From a virus (taxonomy: Duplodnaviria > Heunggongvirae > Uroviricota > Caudoviricetes): a stretch of DNA of 16,452 bases. A program made the position numbers and the translations under genes. Shown here one piece after another: positions 1-11,110 of this stretch. Where the stretch lies: the IMG/VR virus record IMGVR_UViG_2737471821_000008; one strand, written 5' to 3'. Below the pieces are notes generated by a model. That model saw nothing but the letters and a program-made list of their open reading frames with translations, was not told where the DNA came from and ran no database searches. Numbering within the stretch: position 1 is the stretch's first letter; each line of letters opens with the position of its first letter.

Positions 1-405
1 ATGGATCAGGTCGTTGTTTTTCAAAAGATGTTTGAGCAAGTGAGAAAAGAGCAAAACTTCTCCTGGTTTTATTCAGAATTAAAACATCACCGTATTGCAC
101 ATTACATTTATTATCTGGCTACGGATAACATCAGAATTATTACTCACGATGATACGGTTTTGTTATTAAGAGGAACCAGGAACCTGTTAAAAGTTAGTAC
201 GACCAAGAACCCTGCTAAAATAAAAGAGGCCGCATTGCTTCATATTTGCGGAAAATCTACATTTCGGGAATACTGTTCAACACTGGCAGGCGCGGGCGTT
301 TTCCGGTGGGTTACTGATGTTAATCATAACAAACGCAGTTACTACGCCATTGATAATACGCTTTTATATATTGAAGATGTAGAAAATAATAAACCATTAA
401 TCTAG
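1..405 (+). CDS. ycgX: DUF1398-family protein YcgX (chromosomal flank outside the prophage)
   Basis: Complete 134-aa ORF with ATG at position 1. I recognise the sequence as YcgX, and it sits next to iraM as in E. coli K-12. AT-rich. Confidence 0.6.
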   Translation: MDQVVVFQKMFEQVRKEQNFSWFYSELKHHRIAHYIYYLATDNIRIITHDDTVLLLRGTRNLLKVSTTKNPAKIKEAALLHICGKSTFREYCSTLAGAGVFRWVTDVNHNKRSYYAIDNTLLYIEDVENNKPLI

Positions 406-616
406 CTAAAGTTGGATACTTAAGAAATGCTTCATAATTCAGTAAGGCATTAGCATAATGGAAATAAAAGTGCAGAGACTATCTCTATGGATGATTAATA
501 CTGTCTTTTTATTGTCACCCATAAATAATCACCAGACTAATACTATCAACTTGATATTTGAAATGTGATCACTTGACTTTTGATACGTTATTTTATAACG
601 GTTAACATATTTATAA

Positions 617-662
617 AAACAACGGCCGTGCCACACGTCCGTTTCAATACTTAACGCACATG
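617..662 (+). repeat. Direct repeat copy 1 of an icd 3'UTR/terminator-like ~45-bp sequence
   Basis: By hand alignment 38 of 45 positions match 1481..1525 (aaacaacggNcgtg...ccgtttcaataNttaacNcacatg). No icd coding sequence follows this copy. Confidence 0.6.
621..643. terminator. Imperfect hairpin within repeat copy 1 (possible ycgX terminator)
   Basis: Arms AACGG/CCGTT plus CGTG/CACG with one mismatch and a CCA loop, followed by TTTCAATA. Weaker than copy 2. Confidence 0.35.
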
Positions 663-1104
663 TATTTTGGTTTAGTCATCATCCGGTTATATGTATTTTA
701 GCCAGGAACAGGTTAAATCATTCCTATATAACTCAAAAATTGAAACCTTATTCTCATGTCATGCTTATATTCATTATTATCGTTATATAAAAAGGCAACC
801 ATAATGTTTAGCAAATTGGCACAAAGTAGCATAAAGGCTATGTTTTAATTACAGGATGTTCAGTCATTTGAATGTATAACATTATAGCTAAACAAATCTA
901 AAACGAAGTCAATAATTTATTGCTTTCACAAAATCTCATTTTGTTTAACATCCATTGAGATTCCTTGCTTTAAATTTTATTTTATATAAGCCATCATTTT
1001 AATTAATTTATTTTTTTGAGGGGGGGGTAATATACTCATATGCAAAATCAAGAAATAAACATCCTAATGAACCATATTAAATACCGTGGGATAAGACATA
1101 ACAA

Positions 1105-1428
1105 ATGAAGTGGATAGTAATTGACACGGTAATTCAACCTACATGTGGTATATCTTTTTCAGCCATATGGGGTAATATGAAAATGATCATCTGGTATCAA
1201 TCTACTATATTTCTCCCTCCTGGCAGTATATTTACACCGGTTAAGTCTGGTATTATCCTTAAGGATAAAGAATATCCTATTACTATTTATCACATCGCAC
1301 CATTCAACAAGGATTTATGGAGTTTACTCAAAAGCAGTCAAGAGTGTCCTCCAGGAGAAAGCAAAATAACAAATAAATGTTTACATAATAGTTGCATTAT
1401 AAAAATATGCCCATATGGGCTCAAGTAA
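1105..1428 (+). CDS. iraM: Anti-adaptor protein IraM (stabilises RpoS by inhibiting RssB)
   Basis: 107-aa ORF with ATG start, [22 protein letters not shown]..., recognised as IraM. Lies between ycgX and the icd fragment as in K-12. AT-rich, about 38% GC on a sampled line. Confidence 0.7.
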
Positions 1429-1480
1429 TGGGCTTCATATAAATATGCTCGATATGCTATTAATAATATCCACATAAATA

Positions 1481-1525
1481 AAACAACGGGCGTGTTATAC
1501 GCCCGTTTCAATATTTAACACATGG
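1481..1525 (+). repeat. Direct repeat copy 2 (authentic icd 3'UTR and terminator)
   Basis: Immediately 3' of the icd stop codon (1531..1533 on the - strand). Pairs with 617..662. Confidence 0.6.
1485..1507. terminator. Bidirectional rho-independent terminator (icd terminator; also downstream of iraM)
   Basis: Stem AACGGGCGT / ACGCCCGTT with loop GTTAT. On the - strand it is followed by GTTTTATTTAT (U-tract), on the + strand by TTCAATATTT. Confidence 0.6.
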
Positions 1526-1530
1526 AGAGA

Positions 1531-1695
1531 TTACATGTTTTCGATGATCGCTTCACCAAACTCTGAACATTTCAGCAGCTTAGCGCCTTCCATCAGACGT
1601 TCGAAGTCATAAGTTACGGTCTTGGCATTGATTGCGCCTTCCATACCTTTAACAATCAGGTCAGCCGCTTCAGTCCAACCCATATGGCGCAGCAT
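1531..1695 (-). pseudogene. icdC: Displaced 3' fragment of isocitrate dehydrogenase gene (icdC-type), prophage attachment junction
   Basis: The - strand translates to [54 protein letters not shown], the Icd C-terminus. icd similarity ends abruptly at about 1695. No start codon or upstream icd sequence. Confidence 0.85.
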
Positions 1696-1928
1696 TAGTT
1701 AGATGACTAAATCATAACTATTTGACATAGCAACATAATTTTACTAATTTGCATATAACTCATTAGCTCTTAGCATTTCTATAACTCATTGATTATAAAC
1801 ATGTGTTTTTGAGTTTTGATAACCATTTTTAGCATAAAAATAGCTGTTAACATTTGCAGAAATTAAGATCAGAGAAAATTTTTACCCTGTAGGGTATTAC
1901 GTCTTAAATGTGACTTTAATAAACAATT

Positions 1929-2762
1929 TTATTTCTGTAATCGGTTTATATTAACGTAAAGCATCTCGATTAGTTCTTTTGCATTTTTACTATAGTGTAA
2001 TTCTCTATGACAATTCGGACAAAGGGCAACACAGTTATCTGTTGTATCAGCACCACCTGAAGACAGGGGAATTACATGATGCACTTCCAAATATGGGTTT
2101 CCATCATTTAAATAAAACGGAGCATTTTTACCACAGTTTTCACATATACCTTTACTTTGCTGTAAAATCCAAGCTTTTACCATCGGGTCTCGAACATAAA
2201 CTTTTTGTAGTCTTTCTACCTCAACTGGTTTCCTGGAGCCCTCGGGTTGACTCAACGTTTTCTTAATTAATTTACTAACCCTCATATTCAGAAGCGATTC
2301 ATCATCTGTAGGCTGTGAAAGCTCTGATAGTTCTCCACGTATTATAGACGCCCAAAAACTGTCACTATAAATTCCTGGAACATTTATCAATATTCGTTTC
2401 GTTCTATTGCCGGAAGGAATTTCCTTTCTCCCCGTACGACTAAAATAAGCCTGATAACCACACATCTTCAAGCGTATATCGCGGGGGCTATTACCAATCA
2501 AAGTAAAATATTCACCAGGATGGATTTTTCTTTCATCCAAAGAATGCATATGTTTTCTGACTGATGATGACGCCAGATATACTACGACTTGGGATACACC
2601 AGAATCAACCAACCGTTCAATGATATAATCAAGAGCGATATTGTAATCTTTGTTTCTGTCACCCGGCCCCCACGACTCAAGGATTAGACCATAAACACCA
2701 TCCTCTTCACCTATCGAGCACTCAGCTTTCAGTTCAATTCCATTATTATCAAAAACATGCAT
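1929..2762 (-). CDS. mcrA: 5-methylcytosine-specific restriction endonuclease McrA (HNH family)
   Basis: 277-aa ORF with ATG start. C-terminal HNH motif ...CENCGKNAPFYLNDGNPYLEVHHVIPLSSGGADTTDNCVALCPNCHRELH. Recognised as McrA. GC about 45% on sampled lines. Confidence 0.9.
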   Translation of the reverse strand: MHVFDNNGIELKAECSIGEEDGVYGLILESWGPGDRNKDYNIALDYIIERLVDSGVSQVVVYLASSSVRKHMHSLDERKIHPGEYFTLIGNSPRDIRLKMCGYQAYFSRTGRKEIPSGNRTKRILINVPGIYSDSFWASIIRGELSELSQPTDDESLLNMRVSKLIKKTLSQPEGSRKPVEVERLQKVYVRDPMVKAWILQQSKGICENCGKNAPFYLNDGNPYLEVHHVIPLSSGGADTTDNCVALCPNCHRELHYSKNAKELIEMLYVNINRLQK

Positions 2763-2868
2763 AATATTAATCTTTAATCAATTTTTCACGACAATACTAC
2801 TTTTATTGATAAAATTGCAACAAGTTGCTGTTGTTTTACTTTCTTTTGTACACAAAGTGTCTTTAACT

Positions 2869-3423
2869 TTATTTATCCTCTGCAGGAAACCTCTTATACA
2901 AAGTTGACACACCAACATCATAGATAATCGCCACCTTCTGGCGAGGAACTCCTGATGCAATTAATCGTCCGGCCTGTGCCCATTGTTCTGGTGTAAGTTT
3001 GGGACGACGTCCACCAATTCGCCCCTGTGCGCGAGCAGCTTCCAGTCCAGCTTTTGTTCGTTCAACAATCAGTTCACGCTCCATTTCAGCCAGGGCACCC
3101 ATCACATGAAAGAAAAAGCGTCCCATTGGTGTGCTGGTATCAATTGAATCCGTCAGACTACGAAAGTTGATGCCTCGTTCGCGCAACTCCTCCACCAACA
3201 CGACAAGATGCCGCATACTACGCCCCAGCCGATCCAGCTTCCAGACAACCAGAGTGTCACCTGCCGATAATGTCCTGAGCAGTTTTTTCAGTCCCGGCCT
3301 TTCGGACTTTGTGCCGCTTATCTTGTCTTCAAAAATCAGCTCGCATCCTGCACAGTTCAGCGCATTACGTTGTAGATCTGTGTTCTGGTCATTTGTTGAT
3401 ACGCGTACATAGCCAATAAGCAT
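2869..3423 (-). CDS. pinE: Serine DNA invertase Pin (Gin/Hin/Cin family)
   Basis: Start placed at the internal ATG giving MLIGYVRVSTNDQNTDLQRNAL... (184 aa), the typical invertase N-terminus with catalytic Ser in RVST. The ORF track begins 12 codons upstream at 3459. Confidence 0.9.
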   Translation of the reverse strand: MLIGYVRVSTNDQNTDLQRNALNCAGCELIFEDKISGTKSERPGLKKLLRTLSAGDTLVVWKLDRLGRSMRHLVVLVEELRERGINFRSLTDSIDTSTPMGRFFFHVMGALAEMERELIVERTKAGLEAARAQGRIGGRRPKLTPEQWAQAGRLIASGVPRQKVAIIYDVGVSTLYKRFPAEDK

Positions 3424-3477
3424 GGTAGCTCCCCCTGACAAAAGCAGGAATGATGCCATTTGCTCGTTATTTCTGCA

Positions 3478-3503
3478 TTTTCATAAACGTTGGTTTGGGA
3501 GAA
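3478..3503. repeat. Pin recombination (crossover) site, pin-proximal copy
   Basis: TTTTCATAAACG-TT-GGTTTGGGAGAA resembles the 26-bp gix/hix architecture. The inner half-site GGTTTGGGAGAA is a perfect inverted repeat of 5362..5373. Confidence 0.7.
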
Positions 3504-4022
3504 GGTGCTCCAGCTATTGGCGTTCCGTTCTTCTGGCCGTCCGCCGCAATGCCAAATACTGTAATCGACAGTTGGTCCAGTATGGTGTTTTTGAAGTTCA
3601 ACGGCGCGAAATTCTCTGCCACTGATTACCCTGTGCTGGCGAAAGTGTTTCCGGCGCTAGCATTACCTGACGCACGGGGTGATTTCATTCGTATCTGGGA
3701 TGATGGGCGCGGGATTGATGTCGGACGTACCCTACTTTCAGGGCAATCACACACAATTATGGATCATGCACACAATATGGAATTGTGGACGGGGGACGGG
3801 CTTGCCGCAGGAAGTGCACGGGAAGGAGTAAACCCAGGAATACTGGCTACATACGGTGACGGGGGAATAGTTAAAACGGACGAACCCGGTCTTAAGGTGC
3901 CTTCCTCACTACGAGCTCTTAGCTCTCGTAGTGTTAAACGTTATGGTGAAATTAGTGGAAATGTAGATACAGAAACCCGTCCACGAAATATTGCATTCAA
4001 CTTTCTGGTGAGGGCTAAATAA
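3491..4022 (+). pseudogene. stfE: Silent alternative tail-fibre C-terminal cassette (StfE-type variable domain), in-phase with the stfP constant region after inversion
   Basis: ORF 3450..4022 runs through the crossover site (…VGLGEGAP…) and ends …ETRPRNIAFNFLVRAK, a typical fibre C-terminus. The ATG at 3450 lies outside the segment and is not a real start. The core TT occupies codon positions 2 and 3 in both cassettes. Confidence 0.65.
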
Positions 4023-4615
4023 TGATACCTGTTTTTGATGAAAATGGGCTGGCTACAGTGCCGGGCGATATGCGTTGTTTTTATTATAATGCAGTAACGT
4101 ATGAATATACCGGCTGGTCTGATGAATATATTAATACTGGCGTAAGTATACCCGCCTGTTCCACTGGTATTGACCCGGGCGAAAACATCCCGGGAAAAGT
4201 GGCAGTATTTACGGGTAAGGGATGGAGCCATGAAGAAGACCATCGCAATGAGACCGTTTACTCAACTGAAAATGGCGCAGCTGTTACAGTGGATTATATC
4301 GGTGCCATCAAAGACGGTTATGTCACGCTTTCACCGTTAACGCCATACGATAAATGGGATGGTGAGAAATGGGTGACGGATACCGAGGCACAGCATAGCG
4401 CCGCAGTAGAAGCGGCAGAAGCACAGCGCCAGTCGCTGATTGATGCTGCAATGGCTTCCATCAGTCTGATTCAACTGAAATTACAGGCTGGGCGGAAGCT
4501 GACGCAGCCAGAAAACACCCGACTTAACGCTGTGCTGGATTACATTGACGCGGTGACGGCAACAGATACCAGCACAGCGCCGGATGTCATCTGGCCTGAA
4601 CTGCCGGAGGCGTAG
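4022..4615 (+). CDS. tfaE: Tail fibre assembly protein (alternative cassette partner)
   Basis: 197-aa ORF, ATG overlapping the cassette stop (TAATG). Tfa-family conserved C-terminus …TSTAPDVIWPELPEA. Confidence 0.8.
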   Translation: MIPVFDENGLATVPGDMRCFYYNAVTYEYTGWSDEYINTGVSIPACSTGIDPGENIPGKVAVFTGKGWSHEEDHRNETVYSTENGAAVTVDYIGAIKDGYVTLSPLTPYDKWDGEKWVTDTEAQHSAAVEAAEAQRQSLIDAAMASISLIQLKLQAGRKLTQPENTRLNAVLDYIDAVTATDTSTAPDVIWPELPEA

Positions 4616-5024
4616 GCCATTCAATATCTGGCGCACCGGAAGTATCGATCAGCTCCAGTGCGTCCAGATAATCCAGCCACAAATTATATTGCGCCAGTTC
4701 ATCACCTTTCAGACGACCAATAGCGGCTTTACCGGGCCATTGCTTACTGTTCATGTATTCGTTGGCCTGATTAAGCAATAATTGCCTTTCTGATTCTGCC
4801 TGTTGAATAAGTTCTTCATGTGATGGTGGAGGTATTAGTGCCCATGTGGGTAATCCATTTTTTCCTGCAACACGAATTTTGTCATCTGGAGGCGTATTGA
4901 TTGCAAATTCATTATAAACATCATCACTGACAGCCAGAGCATCATCTGGCCATGAATTTGCATTAATGTAATCATCCTTAAGTGCAGGATTCACAAAAAT
5001 GTTTAAAGATGGACTATAAAACAT
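4587..5024 (-). CDS. tfaP: Tail fibre assembly protein (expressed orientation)
   Basis: 145-aa ORF immediately after stfP (TAATATG junction). C-terminus …TSGAPDIEWPTPP is similar to TfaE. Its 3' end overlaps tfaE convergently over 4587..4615. Confidence 0.8.
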   Translation of the reverse strand: MFYSPSLNIFVNPALKDDYINANSWPDDALAVSDDVYNEFAINTPPDDKIRVAGKNGLPTWALIPPPSHEELIQQAESERQLLLNQANEYMNSKQWPGKAAIGRLKGDELAQYNLWLDYLDALELIDTSGAPDIEWPTPPAVQAR

Positions 5025-5025
5025 A

Positions 5026-5664
5026 TTACACCCCTATAGCGATATAACGACCTAATACAGCGTTTGCAGCAGTCGCTATGCTTGAAAAACCGCGGAACTG
5101 ATTTGATGTAATTGCAGAAGCCGACAGGATTCCTGCGCCTGAAGGTGTATGCCCCACATGACTAACTATCATTCCATAACATGCTGACGGAAAGGCAAAA
5201 GGAAAATCGTTAAGATATCCGGCATCTTCACCACCAGACCCACCAAATCTCGCCTGCCCCCACTGAATAATCAGTGTTCTCCGGGAACCTGAAATAATTA
5301 ACGGGATCGTTACATACCCATTCAGGCCAATGACACCCGATGCAGTGCCAGCCAGAGATAATTCTCCCAAACCAAGGTTTTCGAGAGCCGTTTTCACCGT
5401 GCCATCCGATTTGATATCGCCAAACGGATTCTTGCGGCTTAACAGCAGCGCACGAAGCGCGGTAAGCAGCTGGTCGTGCCGCCCCTTCTCCAGGCTGGCA
5501 CCGGATGCCTCCACCACGCTGCAAAGCTCCTCCTGCAACATGTCAAAGTAGTCATCATCCAGATCGGTGGCAGGCGTGCCGGTCTGGGGGTTACCACGGG
5601 TAAAACCGTTCTTACCCGCGCCGAACTTATCCTTCTGCGCGGTTTTCGTGTCTATACGATGCAT
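5026..5664 (-). CDS. stfP: Side tail fibre protein (constant N-terminus outside, variable C-terminus inside the invertible segment)
   Basis: 212-aa ORF with ATG start. N-terminus …GNPQTGTPATDLDDDYFDMLQEELCSVVEASG… is typical of phage fibres. The crossover site lies at codons …LENLGLGE. Confidence 0.8.
   Translation of the reverse strand: MHRIDTKTAQKDKFGAGKNGFTRGNPQTGTPATDLDDDYFDMLQEELCSVVEASGASLEKGRHDQLLTALRALLLSRKNPFGDIKSDGTVKTALENLGLGELSLAGTASGVIGLNGYVTIPLIISGSRRTLIIQWGQARFGGSGGEDAGYLNDFPFAFPSACYGMIVSHVGHTPSGAGILSASAITSNQFRGFSSIATAANAVLGRYIAIGV
5362..5387. repeat. Pin recombination (crossover) site, distal copy inside stfP
   Basis: TTCTCCCAAACC-AA-GGTTTTCGAGAG. Its reverse complement matches the 3478..3503 site. 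Confidence 0.7.
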
Positions 5665-5667
5665 GGA

Positions 5668-6252
5668 TTACTCCGGATATTTAAAAATTACGTAGGTATG
5701 CGACGGGCAGAGTTTGTTAAGCACACATTCGACAACTGTGTCGCCCCAGATACGCAGTGCGGAATCACAGGGATCGCCACATGTCATCCAGGTGGTGTTG
5801 GTGGCGGCTGGCATGTTGACCTGCCAGTAATACCGCCATTCAGGCGCGTTCACAGCGTCAGTACAGGCCGATGAGCAGGTGAACGTGCTTTTGTCGTATC
5901 GCTTGATGGTGGCATCTGGTCTGCCCAGGGCAGCAAGCTGTGCAAGATAAAAATCCTCGTTGATGCCGCCCGCCAGGTTAACCTTCGCATCCAGCCGTTG
6001 CTGACGCTGGCGAAGGGTCTGTGTCCCTGCGGGAATACATTCATCCGGCAGACCGCACAGACGCTCCCAGCGGTTTATCAGTTCAGTGGTGGTGCGCGGA
6101 TCCAGCTCCCGCATCAGGGCATCCGCACGCTGATGAACGCGGGTTAATGACGGTGCCGCACCGGCAATCGCCGGATCGCTGGCTGACCACGCCGGACCGG
6201 GGGGCAACAGTGCTGACAACAGACGGATGTAATCATCGTTTGTCACGTCCAT
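5668..6252 (-). CDS. ymfQ: Phage tail/baseplate protein YmfQ (DUF2313, Mu gp48-like)
   Basis: 194-aa ORF with ATG start, directly upstream of the fibre gene and overlapping the baseplate-J gene end. Recognised as YmfQ. Confidence 0.7.
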
Positions 6253-7301
6253 GAAATCGTCCCCAGTACCGCCAGTTCATTTTTTGCAATGGAGATATTG
6301 TCTGCCGGTGCAAGCAACTGATGGCTGTATTCCCCGTTCGCACCGGAAATCGCCTCACTGATACGCGATACCTTCAGTTCTCCCTGCGGATAACCATCAC
6401 GCAGCAGGAACGAACGCAACTCCGCGGTGATGGCAGCCCGTATTTCCGGTGTGTCCGGCGTCACACGGATATGAAAATCCACCGTATGTGCCACCGGCCT
6501 GAACACATACAAATCAGAGCCTGCCACCGGGGCCAGTGGCTCGATATGTTGTCTTGCCGCCGTTTCCGTTGATTCTTCCGGAATGGGATTAATCAGGTCA
6601 CTGCTGGCAATCATCACACCGACAGTTCCCGTTCCCATCCAGTGACGGTATGTCCATGCGCGGGTAATGCCGGGCACTTCTTTAGCCCAGACAACATAGT
6701 CCCCGTCAGCCCCGCCCTGCGGCGTCCAGTAATACCGCTCAATGACGCGGGCGCGCCACGTTTCCAGCTCTTCAGTATCAAATCCGCCTGTCAGGGTGTC
6801 AGCCACACCGGAAGACGGCAGACCATTCACCGGCGTGACCAGGATTAATGCCGTACCGTCGTCAGCATTACCGACCGCACCTGCACTTGAGCAGGCGATC
6901 GGCACGCGCAGGACACCACCGGAGCTGGTTGCATCGTCAGTTGTCGTGTACTGCACCAGGTCATCGCGCTGAATAACACTCCCGGCGGTCACCTTCAGGC
7001 CATCGCTGACACCTTCCCAGCGCATATACCCACTGGCAACCGTGGCTCCCTTGCGCGGACACCGTTTCATCGCAGCATGTCGCGCCAGCCAGGACTCATC
7101 GCACAGGTCAGGCAGCATGTTCATTGCCAGATAATCGATGTAACCGTAAACCGTATGCAGCGCCGCCGCATACACCTTTGCCCGCACGTCTTCATCCATG
7201 CGCCGGAGCGTGTCGCTGACGTCCAGCCTGGCGAATAAATCGTTACGGAGCATACTGATATTTTCTGCCAGCGTCGGGCGCTGAAATTCACTGTCCGCCA
7301 T
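6243..7301 (-). CDS. jayE: Baseplate J-like protein (Mu gp47 / P2 gpJ family)
   Basis: 352-aa ORF with ATG start. Position and size fit the baseplate wedge protein that precedes gp48-like and fibre genes. The symbol follows e14 nomenclature from memory. Confidence 0.7.
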
Positions 7302-7602
7302 GCGTTATCGCACTCCACAGATCATCAAAAGAAATCATTACCGGTCCGTCACGACGCCAGAGGGTGATACTGTTACCCAGTTCATTAATCCCGGTGCGGC
7401 GGATATCCAGATCAATACGGGACACCACGCCGTCATCAATCATCCATTGCAGGCATTCGCGGATACCCGCCCCGGCAGCGCCCAGAGCAAGGCTGGAGAC
7501 TTCTTTCTGAAACCCCTTAAGCTGACGCTGCATACCTTTAAGCGGGCCGGACAGCCTGTCAACGGCGGTGATGATGGCTTTCAGCTGAAAATTATCAGCC
7601 AT
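7288..7602 (-). CDS. Short chimeric ORF: tape-measure-like N-terminus joined to an unrelated C-terminus (probable deletion product)
   Basis: Strong SD (GAGGAG, 7-nt spacer) and ATG. N-terminus MADNFQLKAIITAVDRLSGPLKG fits the usual tape-measure start, but the ORF is only 104 aa and its end overlaps the baseplate-J start. Confidence 0.4.
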   Translation of the reverse strand: MADNFQLKAIITAVDRLSGPLKGMQRQLKGFQKEVSSLALGAAGAGIRECLQWMIDDGVVSRIDLDIRRTGINELGNSITLWRRDGPVMISFDDLWSAITHGGQ

Positions 7603-10789: not shown

Positions 10790-11110
10790 TCACCAGAGAT
10801 CATCCGGTTCGCGCAGACCGTCTTCACGGCCTTTACGCAGGAAGCCCACAAACGCCTCTTTATGCTCGGTGGCCAGTTTATTTTGCGCTCCACCAGCCGG
10901 ACGTTTCAGCTCAAGCAGCTCTTTTTCAAGGTCGCTTTTGAGATTTTCCAGCTCGCTGAGTTTCCCGTTCAGGGTTTCCACCTGCCCGGCAAGCTTGCCT
11001 TTTTCCTGCTCAATCGCATCCACGCGCTTGTCGTTCTTTGCTTTGAAGTCGTCAAACTTCTGCTGCAGCTCCTGCGCGACCTGTTCGACATCTTTAATAT
11101 CAACCGCCAT
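10790..11110 (-). pseudogene. Major capsid protein, N-terminal fragment only (HK97-type delta domain)
   Basis: Strong SD (AGGAGA) and ATG right after the protease gene. 106 aa of coiled coil (…VETLNGKLSELENLKSDLEKELLELK…EHKEAFVGFLRKG) then a premature stop. No capsid body is encoded downstream in any frame. Confidence 0.55.

Follow-up and report, generated by a model that had tools for sequence, protein, structure and literature searches.

A 16,452-nucleotide stretch of viral DNA (hereafter, the window) contains a gene for a serine DNA invertase beside a segment in which two tail-fibre cassettes are arranged in opposite orientations between two inverted 26-bp sites. This arrangement raises the questions of whether the segment inverts, whether both orientations encode a continuous fibre and what inversion could serve in a prophage that is defective. 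The locus can be identified with high confidence as the P segment of an e14-family prophage, a site-specific inversion switch of the Gin/Hin/Cin/Pin type. The system itself is already known; descriptions of the e14 P segment date back to the 1980s, and its inversion has been seen in cultures (PMC4272514; PMC12529663).

The e14 family context of the window

Membership of the e14 family was judged by integration in icd, duplication of the 3' end of this gene (icdC), and the presence of mcrA and pinE beside iraM at the right end. Window positions 1–3505 are 99.2% identical to, and collinear with, the ycgX-iraM-icdC-mcrA-pinE region of K-12. The McrA protein consists of 277 residues and contains an HNH domain.

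Two deletions, affecting the tail genes and the head genes, respectively, are private to this prophage, which is devoid of tape-measure, baseplate-hub, capsid and head-completion genes. Neither deletion junction was found in any complete E. coli genome. Given these structural gene losses, the prophage does not produce virions, and a host-range role of the switch is moot here. The late-operon deletions are located upstream of the fibre gene and may affect its transcription. Despite the two deletions, the block consisting of stf, the P segment, pin and mcrA is intact. The same block is also intact in EC06, ARS-C301 and K-12, each of which has lost most or all of its structural genes.

Organization of the P segment

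The constant N-terminal part of the fibre lies outside the segment, downstream of genes for YmfQ (Mu gp48-like) and Baseplate_J, and is identical to K-12 StfP at 100 of 101 residues (Table 1). Two in-phase C-terminal cassettes, each followed by its own chaperone gene, occupy the inside of the segment in opposite orientations. In the present state, the constant part is joined to the Gp53-like_C cassette and the 145-aa chaperone, the same orientation as in the K-12 MG1655 reference. The tfaP-type gene starts 1 nt past the fibre stop codon (TAATATG), and the tfaE-type start overlaps the stop codon of the pin-proximal cassette (TAATG). The two chaperone genes converge, and the 3' end of the tfaE-type gene overlaps the tfaP-type gene by 29 bp. 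The pin-proximal cassette has a weak match to the Pfam Collar family (0.0016), which is under the curated cut-off, and an NCBIfam search of the fibre and chaperone proteins returned no matches. The Gp53-like and collar-like cassettes are unrelated to each other and probably bind receptors. The gene names borrowed from K-12 mask a divergence, as the cassettes in the window are other alleles.

Table 1. Features of the invertible locus (window coordinates)
Feature	Position	Strand	Description
pin (pinE), serine DNA invertase, 184 aa	2869–3423	-	Pfam Resolvase (1.5e-51) and HTH_7 (1.5e-13); transcribed away from the segment
Putative Fis-dependent recombinational enhancer	3339–3401	-	Inside the pin 5' end; two Fis-like 15-mers
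Short leader ORF start in the pin-pixL spacer	3453–3491	+	Reads into whichever cassette is pin-proximal
pixL, left 26-bp crossover site	3478–3503	.	TTTTCATAAACG TT GGTTTGGGAGAA; core TT at 3490–3491
Invertible P segment between cores	3492–5373	.	1,882 bp; 1,886 bp including both cores
Pin-proximal alternative C-terminal cassette, collar-like	3492–4022	+	Unjoined to the fibre N-terminus in the present orientation
tfaE-type tail-fibre assembly chaperone, 197 aa	4022–4615	+	Pfam Caudo_TAP (1.2e-27); cognate to the pin-proximal cassette
tfaP-type tail-fibre assembly chaperone, 145 aa	4587–5024	-	Pfam Caudo_TAP (1.2e-32); cognate to the fused cassette
Variable C-terminal cassette now fused	5026–5373	-	Gp53-like_C, Pfam PF21882 (4e-12); completes the 212-aa fibre
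pixR, right 26-bp crossover site	5362–5387	.	TTCTCCCAAACC AA GGTTTTCGAGAG; core AA at 5374–5375
Fibre gene, constant N-terminal part	5376–5664	-	Codons 1–96 and first base of Leu97; outside the segment

Crossover sites

The pixL and pixR sites are imperfect palindromes in inverted orientation with matching 2-bp cores, and both are identical to the 26-bp sites of K-12 e14. The inner 12-mers are perfect reverse complements of each other, as the initial annotation had described together with the TT/AA core; the perfect match extends to 14 bp when the core is included. Over their full length, the two sites agree at 21 of 26 positions, and the pair was also recovered by an independent repeat search (19 nt, 95%).

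A half-site consensus with 18 specified positions was built from the pix, gix and cix sites. Both pixL and pixR match it at 17 of the 18 positions, a score of at least 17/18 being expected by chance about 1e-5 times. No third position in the window reaches 13/18, and no site of at least 15/18 was obtained in 100 shuffles. A Min-like multi-site system with extra crossover sites was considered and rejected, given that the scan finds two sites only. An inverted repeat at 2740–2765 and 4022–4047 (26 nt, 81%), at the starts of mcrA and tfaE, looks like a hix half-site at first sight, but it does not pass the consensus scan and was treated as a chance occurrence.

Reading phase at the crossover

The two core bases occupy codon positions 2 and 3 in both reading frames. 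In the expressed ORF (5664 to 5026, minus strand), the core falls within the CTT codon of Leu97, and in the frame from 3450 to 4022 on the plus strand, it falls within a GTT codon for valine. The translations at the crossover (...TALENLGLGELSLAG... in the expressed frame and ...INVGLGEGAPAIG... in the silent cassette) match those given in the initial annotation. Its assignment of the core to codon positions 2 and 3 was borne out, and the cassettes, re-inspected for a difference in phase, were found to be in phase. The point of exchange was misplaced, however. The boundary drawn after LGLGE is where the shared half-site ends, and the exchange occurs four codons earlier, at the L/V codon.

The crossover lies within fibre codon 97, and its two sides share one reading phase. 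Whichever way the segment points, the constant N-terminus therefore continues into one of the two C-termini, with the chaperone gene of that cassette directly downstream. When the sequence between the cores was inverted in silico, residues 1–97 were placed in frame with the pin-proximal cassette to generate a 273-aa fibre, followed by the tfaE-type chaperone. The simulated 273-aa fibre is an exact annotated CDS in PSS-08-2, OkiPb01675 and CX05, in agreement with the proposal that inversion exchanges both the fibre C-terminus and tfaP for tfaE. The stfP/tfaP pair had also been described as the one currently expressed. The orientation holds, in that the cassette and the 145-aa chaperone are joined to the constant part, and expression is suggested by the gene layout.

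Inversion in other genomes

The reverse complement of positions 3490–5375 is identical to the E. coli PSS-08-2 sequence at all 1,886 positions, and the 200-bp flanks are identical and collinear. Thus, the flip predicted from the window exists in another genome without a single base difference. Over a wider region, the window and PSS-08-2 differ at one of 3,503 bp on the left, at none in the flipped 1,886-bp segment and at two of 2,104 bp on the right. This near-identity around an inverted segment indicates that the flip is very recent. The same allele is flipped in OkiPb01675 and EC06, with 100% identity across both 501-bp junctions. The near-isogenic genomes CX04 and CX05 differ over 6.8 kb solely by an exact flip bounded by the TT and AA cores, and the CX15 assembly contains both orientations, one in the chromosome and the other in a leftover 18-kb contig.

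The end-points of inversion coincide exactly with the TT/AA cores in three independent comparisons. The evidence that the segment inverts at the core is comparative; the window itself represents a single orientation. Among complete genomes, the junction counts were 239 and 24 for the parental junctions and 73 and 49 for the flipped junctions. The present orientation of this allele was not found at 100% identity in any complete E. coli genome (best match, 98.4%). NCBI PGAP annotation already covers both orientations.

In K-12, both e14 orientations co-exist in MG1655-derived cultures (PMC4272514). PinE production raises the inversion of the K-12 segment, deletion of pinE fixes the segment in one orientation, and other Pin paralogues can invert the P segment in trans (PMC12529663).

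Pin invertase and the putative enhancer

Pin is separated from pixL by 55 bp and displays the features of a small serine recombinase, with an N-terminal resolvase domain, a catalytic serine (Ser9, in YVRVSTNDQ) and a C-terminal HTH. Its sequence identity is 97.8% to K-12 PinE, 83% to Cin and 78% to Gin, and NCBIfam yielded sub-threshold matches to other serine recombinases only. In Hin, residues Q151, R154 and L155 and the basic residues at positions 47, 48 and 51 make Fis or enhancer contacts and are conserved only in invertases (PMC3798978). Pin carries all of the corresponding residues (Q150, R153, L154, K46, K47 and R50), with a numbering offset of -1 relative to Hin.

The 5' part of the invertase gene had been proposed to contain a Fis-dependent enhancer, and the sequence of pin fits this proposal. 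Two Fis-like 15-mers are located at pin nt 23–37 (3387–3401) and nt 71–85 (3339–3353), with scores of 6/7 and 7/7, respectively, against GNNYRNNWNNYRNNC. A distance of 48 bp separates their centres, the proximal one being ∼96 bp from the pixL centre. An enhancer with two Fis sites 48 bp apart was reportedly described by Johnson et al. in 1987. The 15-mers occupy equivalent positions in pin, gin and cin, a conservation for which coding constraint could account. The stretch from pin nt 19 to nt 90 aligns without gaps to cin nt 19–90, which the P1 record labels as the Cin enhancer (79% identity), and the distance from the site centre to nt 29 of the invertase gene is 95.5 bp in both pin and Mu. 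An excess of synonymous conservation in the enhancer stretch was not significant (identical codons at 7/19 versus 14/78, 37% versus 18%; Fisher p=0.12).

A promoter and terminator scan of positions 2700–5800 detected seven promoter-like sites compared with 4.7 expected. None of them is suitably located for driving pin or the leader ORF, and the scan yielded no convincing sigma-70 promoter for pin or the fibre operon. A terminator called at 5387–5364 is merely the palindromic crossover site.

Proposed mechanism and role of the switch

The enhancer, the Fis dependence and the catalytic steps are inferred by homology with related invertases. Pin dimers would bind the two 26-bp pix sites, and the Pin-bound sites would assemble with the Fis-bound enhancer at the pin 5' end into an invertasome. 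Ser9 would then cleave the two sites at the TT/AA core, leaving a 2-bp stagger, and a single 180-degree subunit rotation followed by religation would invert the 1.9-kb segment. Given the non-palindromic core, religation would be expected only with the sites in the correct relative orientation. In tail-competent relatives, the switch would act as host-range bet-hedging. In this prophage, it would be a remnant that still works, and any benefit that it now has would fall to the host.

A host benefit forms the core of an alternative view, in which the locus is a domesticated anti-phage toggle. Flipping would change the truncated product of the leader ORF (ATG at 3453) beside pin, and the product of the leader and the Gp53-like domain (128 aa) would mask outer-membrane receptors and thereby block the adsorption of lytic phages. 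This explanation is unlikely, and it concerns only the current benefit of the switch and is compatible with the inversion mechanism. It draws on a report that inversion of the P segment in K-12 gives rise to StfE2, a protein that blocks the adsorption of T2 (PMC12529663). The leader ORF at 3453 is analogous to that of K-12 StfE/StfE2, whose start is claimed to be used in K-12 (PMC12529663, 2025). The leader ORF is present in the window, and flipped genomes carry a 128-aa CDS, annotated by PGAP with this ATG as its start, that is the same as the simulated product. The retention of the stf-P segment-pin-mcrA block in EC06, ARS-C301, K-12 and the window despite structural gene loss points in the same direction. 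However, the Gp53-like cassette shares only 31 of 106 residues with its K-12 counterpart, so any specificity for a target would be different. Both differences from K-12 in the leader are non-synonymous (C to R and F to C), which gives no hint that the leader peptide is under constraint. The AGGA motif is poorly spaced, only 0–3 nt from the ATGs, and the scan gave no promoter-like site for the leader ORF. Furthermore, the support for StfE2 comes from a single study and consists mainly of plasmid overproduction and docking models (PMC12529663).

A broader version of this idea would explain why the switch survives in a twice-deleted prophage: the host would use the leader-fused products (start at 3453) as receptor masks against lytic phages, and the divergent cassette alleles of different E. 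coli lineages would be a population-level repertoire of such masks rather than leftovers of host-range variation. This version is quite improbable. The block outlives the rest of the prophage along several independent paths of decay, the pattern expected if the claimed anti-phage role beneficial to the host is true.

It is very unlikely that the locus is a frozen relic that has kept recognizable sites and genes but lost the ability to invert, for example through a lack of pin expression. The prophage is defective, no promoter-like site was found upstream of pin, and one assembled sequence displays one orientation. These observations are outweighed by an intact pin ORF with all catalytic and Fis-contact residues, sites identical to those of K-12 e14, which inverts, and the very recent flip relative to PSS-08-2. 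Pin paralogues also act in trans in K-12 (PMC12529663).

The probability that the sites form an incidental inverted repeat at which homologous (RecA) recombination between short repeats inverts the segment is negligible: inverted repeats of 12–26 nt are common (20 pairs in 4 kb), but here perfect identity covers 14 bp only, far under efficient RecA substrates, both sites score 17/18 against the invertase consensus with nothing else comparable in the window, the end-points fall exactly at the cores in all three comparisons, and an intact invertase gene is located 55 bp away.

Comparison with known inversion systems

A site-specific inversion switch operated by Pin thus remains the preferred reading, and its closest counterpart is the e14 P segment of K-12, which is said to have been reported by Plasterk and van de Putte in 1985, in EMBO J 4:237. 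The two loci have the same gene order, and the window has the orientation of the MG1655 reference. DNA homology to K-12 ends exactly at both crossover sites. The only match within the segment is at the convergent tfa 3' ends (90% over ∼400 bp). The variable part of the fibre shows 31 identities to StfP in 106 aligned residues, the pin-proximal collar-like cassette shows 77 identities to its K-12 equivalent in 150 residues, and the chaperones are ∼50% (TfaP) and ∼63% (TfaE) identical. The segment measures 1,886 bp in the window and 1,797 bp in K-12. The break in homology exactly at the crossover sites suggests that whole cassette sets have apparently been exchanged between lineages, with the sites and pin remaining constant. 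The prophage in the window is less decayed than K-12 e14 and retains the terminase, portal, protease, sheath, tube and baseplate J genes.

The Mu G segment and Gin share a common layout with the P segment, in which the baseplate gp47/gp48-like genes and the constant part of the fibre are followed by a site, the two opposed cassette pairs (Sv-U and U'-S'v) and the second site. The Mu invertase gene likewise reads away from the segment, and the 26-bp sites conform to the same consensus. The Mu core is TC/GA, whereas that of the P segment is TT/AA. In addition, the G segment spans ∼3 kb, its cassettes are longer and unrelated, and Mu is a complete phage.

The cixL site of P1 has the TT core in common with pixL and a near-identical inner half-site (GGTTTAAGAGAA in cixL versus GGTTTGGGAGAA in pixL). 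Unlike pin, cin is transcribed in the direction of the segment, and its 3' end overlaps cixL. The P1 C segment is ∼4.2 kb long. The Min system of p15B has six sites and multiple segments, whereas the consensus scan of the window finds two sites.

In the Hin system of Salmonella enterica, a Fis-bound enhancer lies within the 5' part of hin, at a distance of ∼100 bp from the closer of the two sites (PMC3798978). The H segment resembles the P segment in its 26-bp sites and in a recombinase of the same subfamily. What Hin flips is a promoter controlling flagellin genes rather than coding cassettes, and hin itself resides within the invertible segment.

Organization of the invertible fibre segment

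The P segment is bounded by two 26-bp crossover sites, pixL and pixR, and lies beside the gene of the serine invertase Pin. The inner 12-mers of the two sites are perfect reverse complements, with 14 bp of identity including the core and 21 of 26 matching positions overall, in agreement with the initial annotation of inverted sites sharing a perfect 12-bp inner half-site. The same pair was recovered independently by a repeat finder (19 nt, 95%). An 18-position half-site consensus was built from these two sites, gix of Mu Gin and cix of P1 Cin. Each site scores 17/18 against it, a level at which ~1e-5 sites are expected by chance. No other position in the whole 16.4-kb window reaches at least 13/18, and none of the shuffled sequences gave a site of at least 15/18. 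Thus, there are exactly two sites, and the pair is not a chance repeat. Another inverted repeat (2740-2765 / 4022-4047; 26 nt, 81%), between the mcrA start region and the tfaE start, fails the 26-bp consensus (<13/18); it contains TTATCAAAAAC, which recalls a hix half-site, and is probably due to chance.

Features of the fibre locus and of the 5,041-bp deletion
Feature	Position	Strand	Description
Left crossover site (pixL)	3478-3503		TTTTCATAAACG TT GGTTTGGGAGAA
Right crossover site (pixR)	5362-5387		TTCTCCCAAACC AA GGTTTTCGAGAG
Pin	2869-3423	minus	184 aa; Resolvase and HTH_7 domains
Fusion ORF at the 5,041-bp deletion	7288-7602	minus	104 aa; partial GP46 match

The current fibre ends in a Gp53-like_C domain, and for the pin-proximal cassette the match to Collar is weak and under the curated cut-off. 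Both small genes within the P segment encode Caudo_TAP tail-fibre chaperones; they are convergent, with 29 bp (4587-4615) shared by their 3′ ends, as in K-12. A Mu gp48-like gene (YmfQ) and a Baseplate_J gene lie upstream on the minus strand, and the gene of the HNH enzyme McrA lies downstream of pin. The 54-bp spacer between pin and pixL contains adjacent ATGs at 3450 and 3453, whose plus-strand frame (3450-3491) runs into whichever cassette is pin-proximal.

The two cassettes are in phase at the cores. In the minus-strand ORF 5664→5026 (212 aa), core bases 5375 and 5374 occupy codon positions 2 and 3 of Leu97 (CTT), and in the plus-strand frame 3450→4022, bases 3490 and 3491 occupy the same positions of a Val codon (GTT). 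In silico inversion of 3490-5375 generates an uninterrupted 273-aa ORF reading ...TALENLGLGEGAPAIG..., which ends in TAATG, its stop overlapping the start of the 197-aa chaperone gene that directly follows. The earlier claims on phase, with the core in codon positions 2 and 3 for both frames, and on a chaperone swap upon inversion are therefore correct; the bar placed after LGLGE shows where the shared half-site stops and is not the exchange point. As read from the sequence, the locus comprises two sites, an intact invertase and in-phase cassettes, each with its own chaperone.

Both orientations in public genomes

Both predicted post-inversion junctions were searched in 5,426 complete E. coli genomes. 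At coverage of at least 80%, the junction of the constant fibre part with the collar cassette is found in 73 genomes and that of pin with the Gp53 cassette in 49, and the parental junctions are found in 239 and 24. Three genomes (PSS-08-2, OkiPb01675 and EC06) contain both predicted junctions at 100%. PSS-08-2 matches the reverse complement of 3490-5375 at 1886/1886 bases, between 200-bp flanks that are identical and collinear with the window, and identity across the surrounding prophage is 99.9-100%. The 273-aa fusion obtained in silico is among the annotated proteins of PSS-08-2, OkiPb01675 and CX05.

Over 6.8 kb, the sole difference between the CX04 and CX05 chromosomes (4,949,012 and 4,949,001 bp) is an exact inversion, which extends at most to the TT and AA cores of this pair of sites. 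The CX15 assembly contains both orientations, one in the chromosome and the other on an 18-kb contig with the same flanking genes. This contig, "plasmid unnamed5" (NZ_CP081745.1, 18,368 bp, linear), has many frameshifts and duplicates the chromosomal prophage region in unpolished form; left over from assembly, it shows that the population was mixed. The pin/P module of the CX strains resides in a tail-complete prophage, beside a LEM-3-like GIY-YIG gene rather than mcrA. At the level of assembled genomes, clean inversion at the cores demonstrably occurs in nature. In K-12 e14, both orientations occur together in clonal cultures (PMC4272514), and inversion depends on PinE and its paralogues (PMC12529663).

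A putative Fis-dependent enhancer within pin

Over the first 160 nt, the alignment of pin, gin and cin is gapless. In the P1 record, cin nt 19-90 are annotated as the Cin enhancer, and the corresponding pin stretch is 79% identical. The Fis consensus GNNYRNNWNNYRNNC has two matches at the same positions in all three genes, nt 23-37 (6/7) and 71-85 (7/7), with centres 48 bp apart, as for the Fis sites of the Hin and Gin enhancers. Invertase nt 29 lies 95.5 bp from the site centre here, as it does in Mu; for Hin the distance is about 100 bp (PMC3798978). Moreover, Pin retains Q150, R153, L154, K46, K47 and R50, residues whose conservation is reported to be limited to Fis-dependent invertases (PMC3798978). 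Circumstantially, these features argue strongly for a putative Fis-dependent enhancer inside pin. The excess of conservation at its synonymous sites falls short of significance (p=0.12), and coding constraint alone could account for its DNA conservation.

By analogy with the family, Pin dimers would occupy both sites with participation of the Fis-bound enhancer, and Ser9 would cleave with a 2-bp stagger. The subunits would then rotate by 180° before religation, which the non-palindromic core would permit only with the sites in correct alignment. Judging from the layout, the late operon ends with the fibre gene, and orientation would thus determine the C-terminus and the chaperone that are produced.

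Prophage decay and a possible host role

Compared with the PSS-08-2 prophage, 5,041 bp are absent at 7464/7465, comprising the rest of gp46, baseplate V, a baseplate assembly protein, a DNA circularization protein and most of the tape measure. A second block, with most of the capsid gene, the head-tail connector and head closure, is absent at ~10803-10810, where the 3′ part of the gene downstream of head closure meets the major capsid gene start and the prohead protease. Neither junction occurs in any of the 5,426 complete E. coli genomes. With these tail and capsid/head genes deleted, the element is predicted to be unable to make particles, which renders host-range switching moot here, as the initial annotation had anticipated.

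The P segment may instead benefit the host. In K-12, StfE2, generated by inversion, is claimed to block T2 adsorption (PMC12529663). Structural genes are largely or wholly gone in K-12, ARS-C301 and EC06 by different decay routes, and the fibre gene, P segment, pin and mcrA stay intact at the icdC end; this retention would fit an anti-phage role, as would the 3453 start, from which PGAP annotates a 128-aa CDS in flipped genomes. Such a role is nevertheless doubtful for this locus because its cassette allele is unlike that of K-12, both leader differences from K-12 (3450-3491) change the amino acid (C→R, F→C), and neither a promoter nor a ribosome-binding site at suitable spacing is apparent.

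Relationship to e14

Window 1-3505 corresponds collinearly, at 99.2% identity, to ycgX-iraM-icdC-mcrA-pinE of E. coli K-12, at the right end of cryptic prophage e14, and both 26-mers are identical in K-12. Against K-12 and ARS-C301, nucleotide homology breaks right at the crossover sites (3503/3504, 5361/5362). Inside the segment, DNA similarity to K-12 is confined to the convergent tfa 3′ ends (4343-4742, 90%). The constant fibre part matches K-12 at 100/101 residues, whereas the Gp53-like and collar-like parts share 31 of 106 and 77 of 150 aligned residues, and TfaP and TfaE are ~50% and ~63% identical to their counterparts. K-12 has flanks and sites in common with the window but not the cassettes. 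With ARS-C301, the window has in common the collar cassette, tfaE and part of tfaP, though not the Gp53-like cassette (4847-5361). This pattern suggests cassette-wise exchange among e14 relatives. The observation is confirmed and its interpretation supported; the system is already known and therefore of low interest. With its sites identical, its left flank collinear and its cassettes divergent, the locus is identified by sequence comparison as the e14 P segment carrying another cassette set in the orientation of the MG1655 reference.
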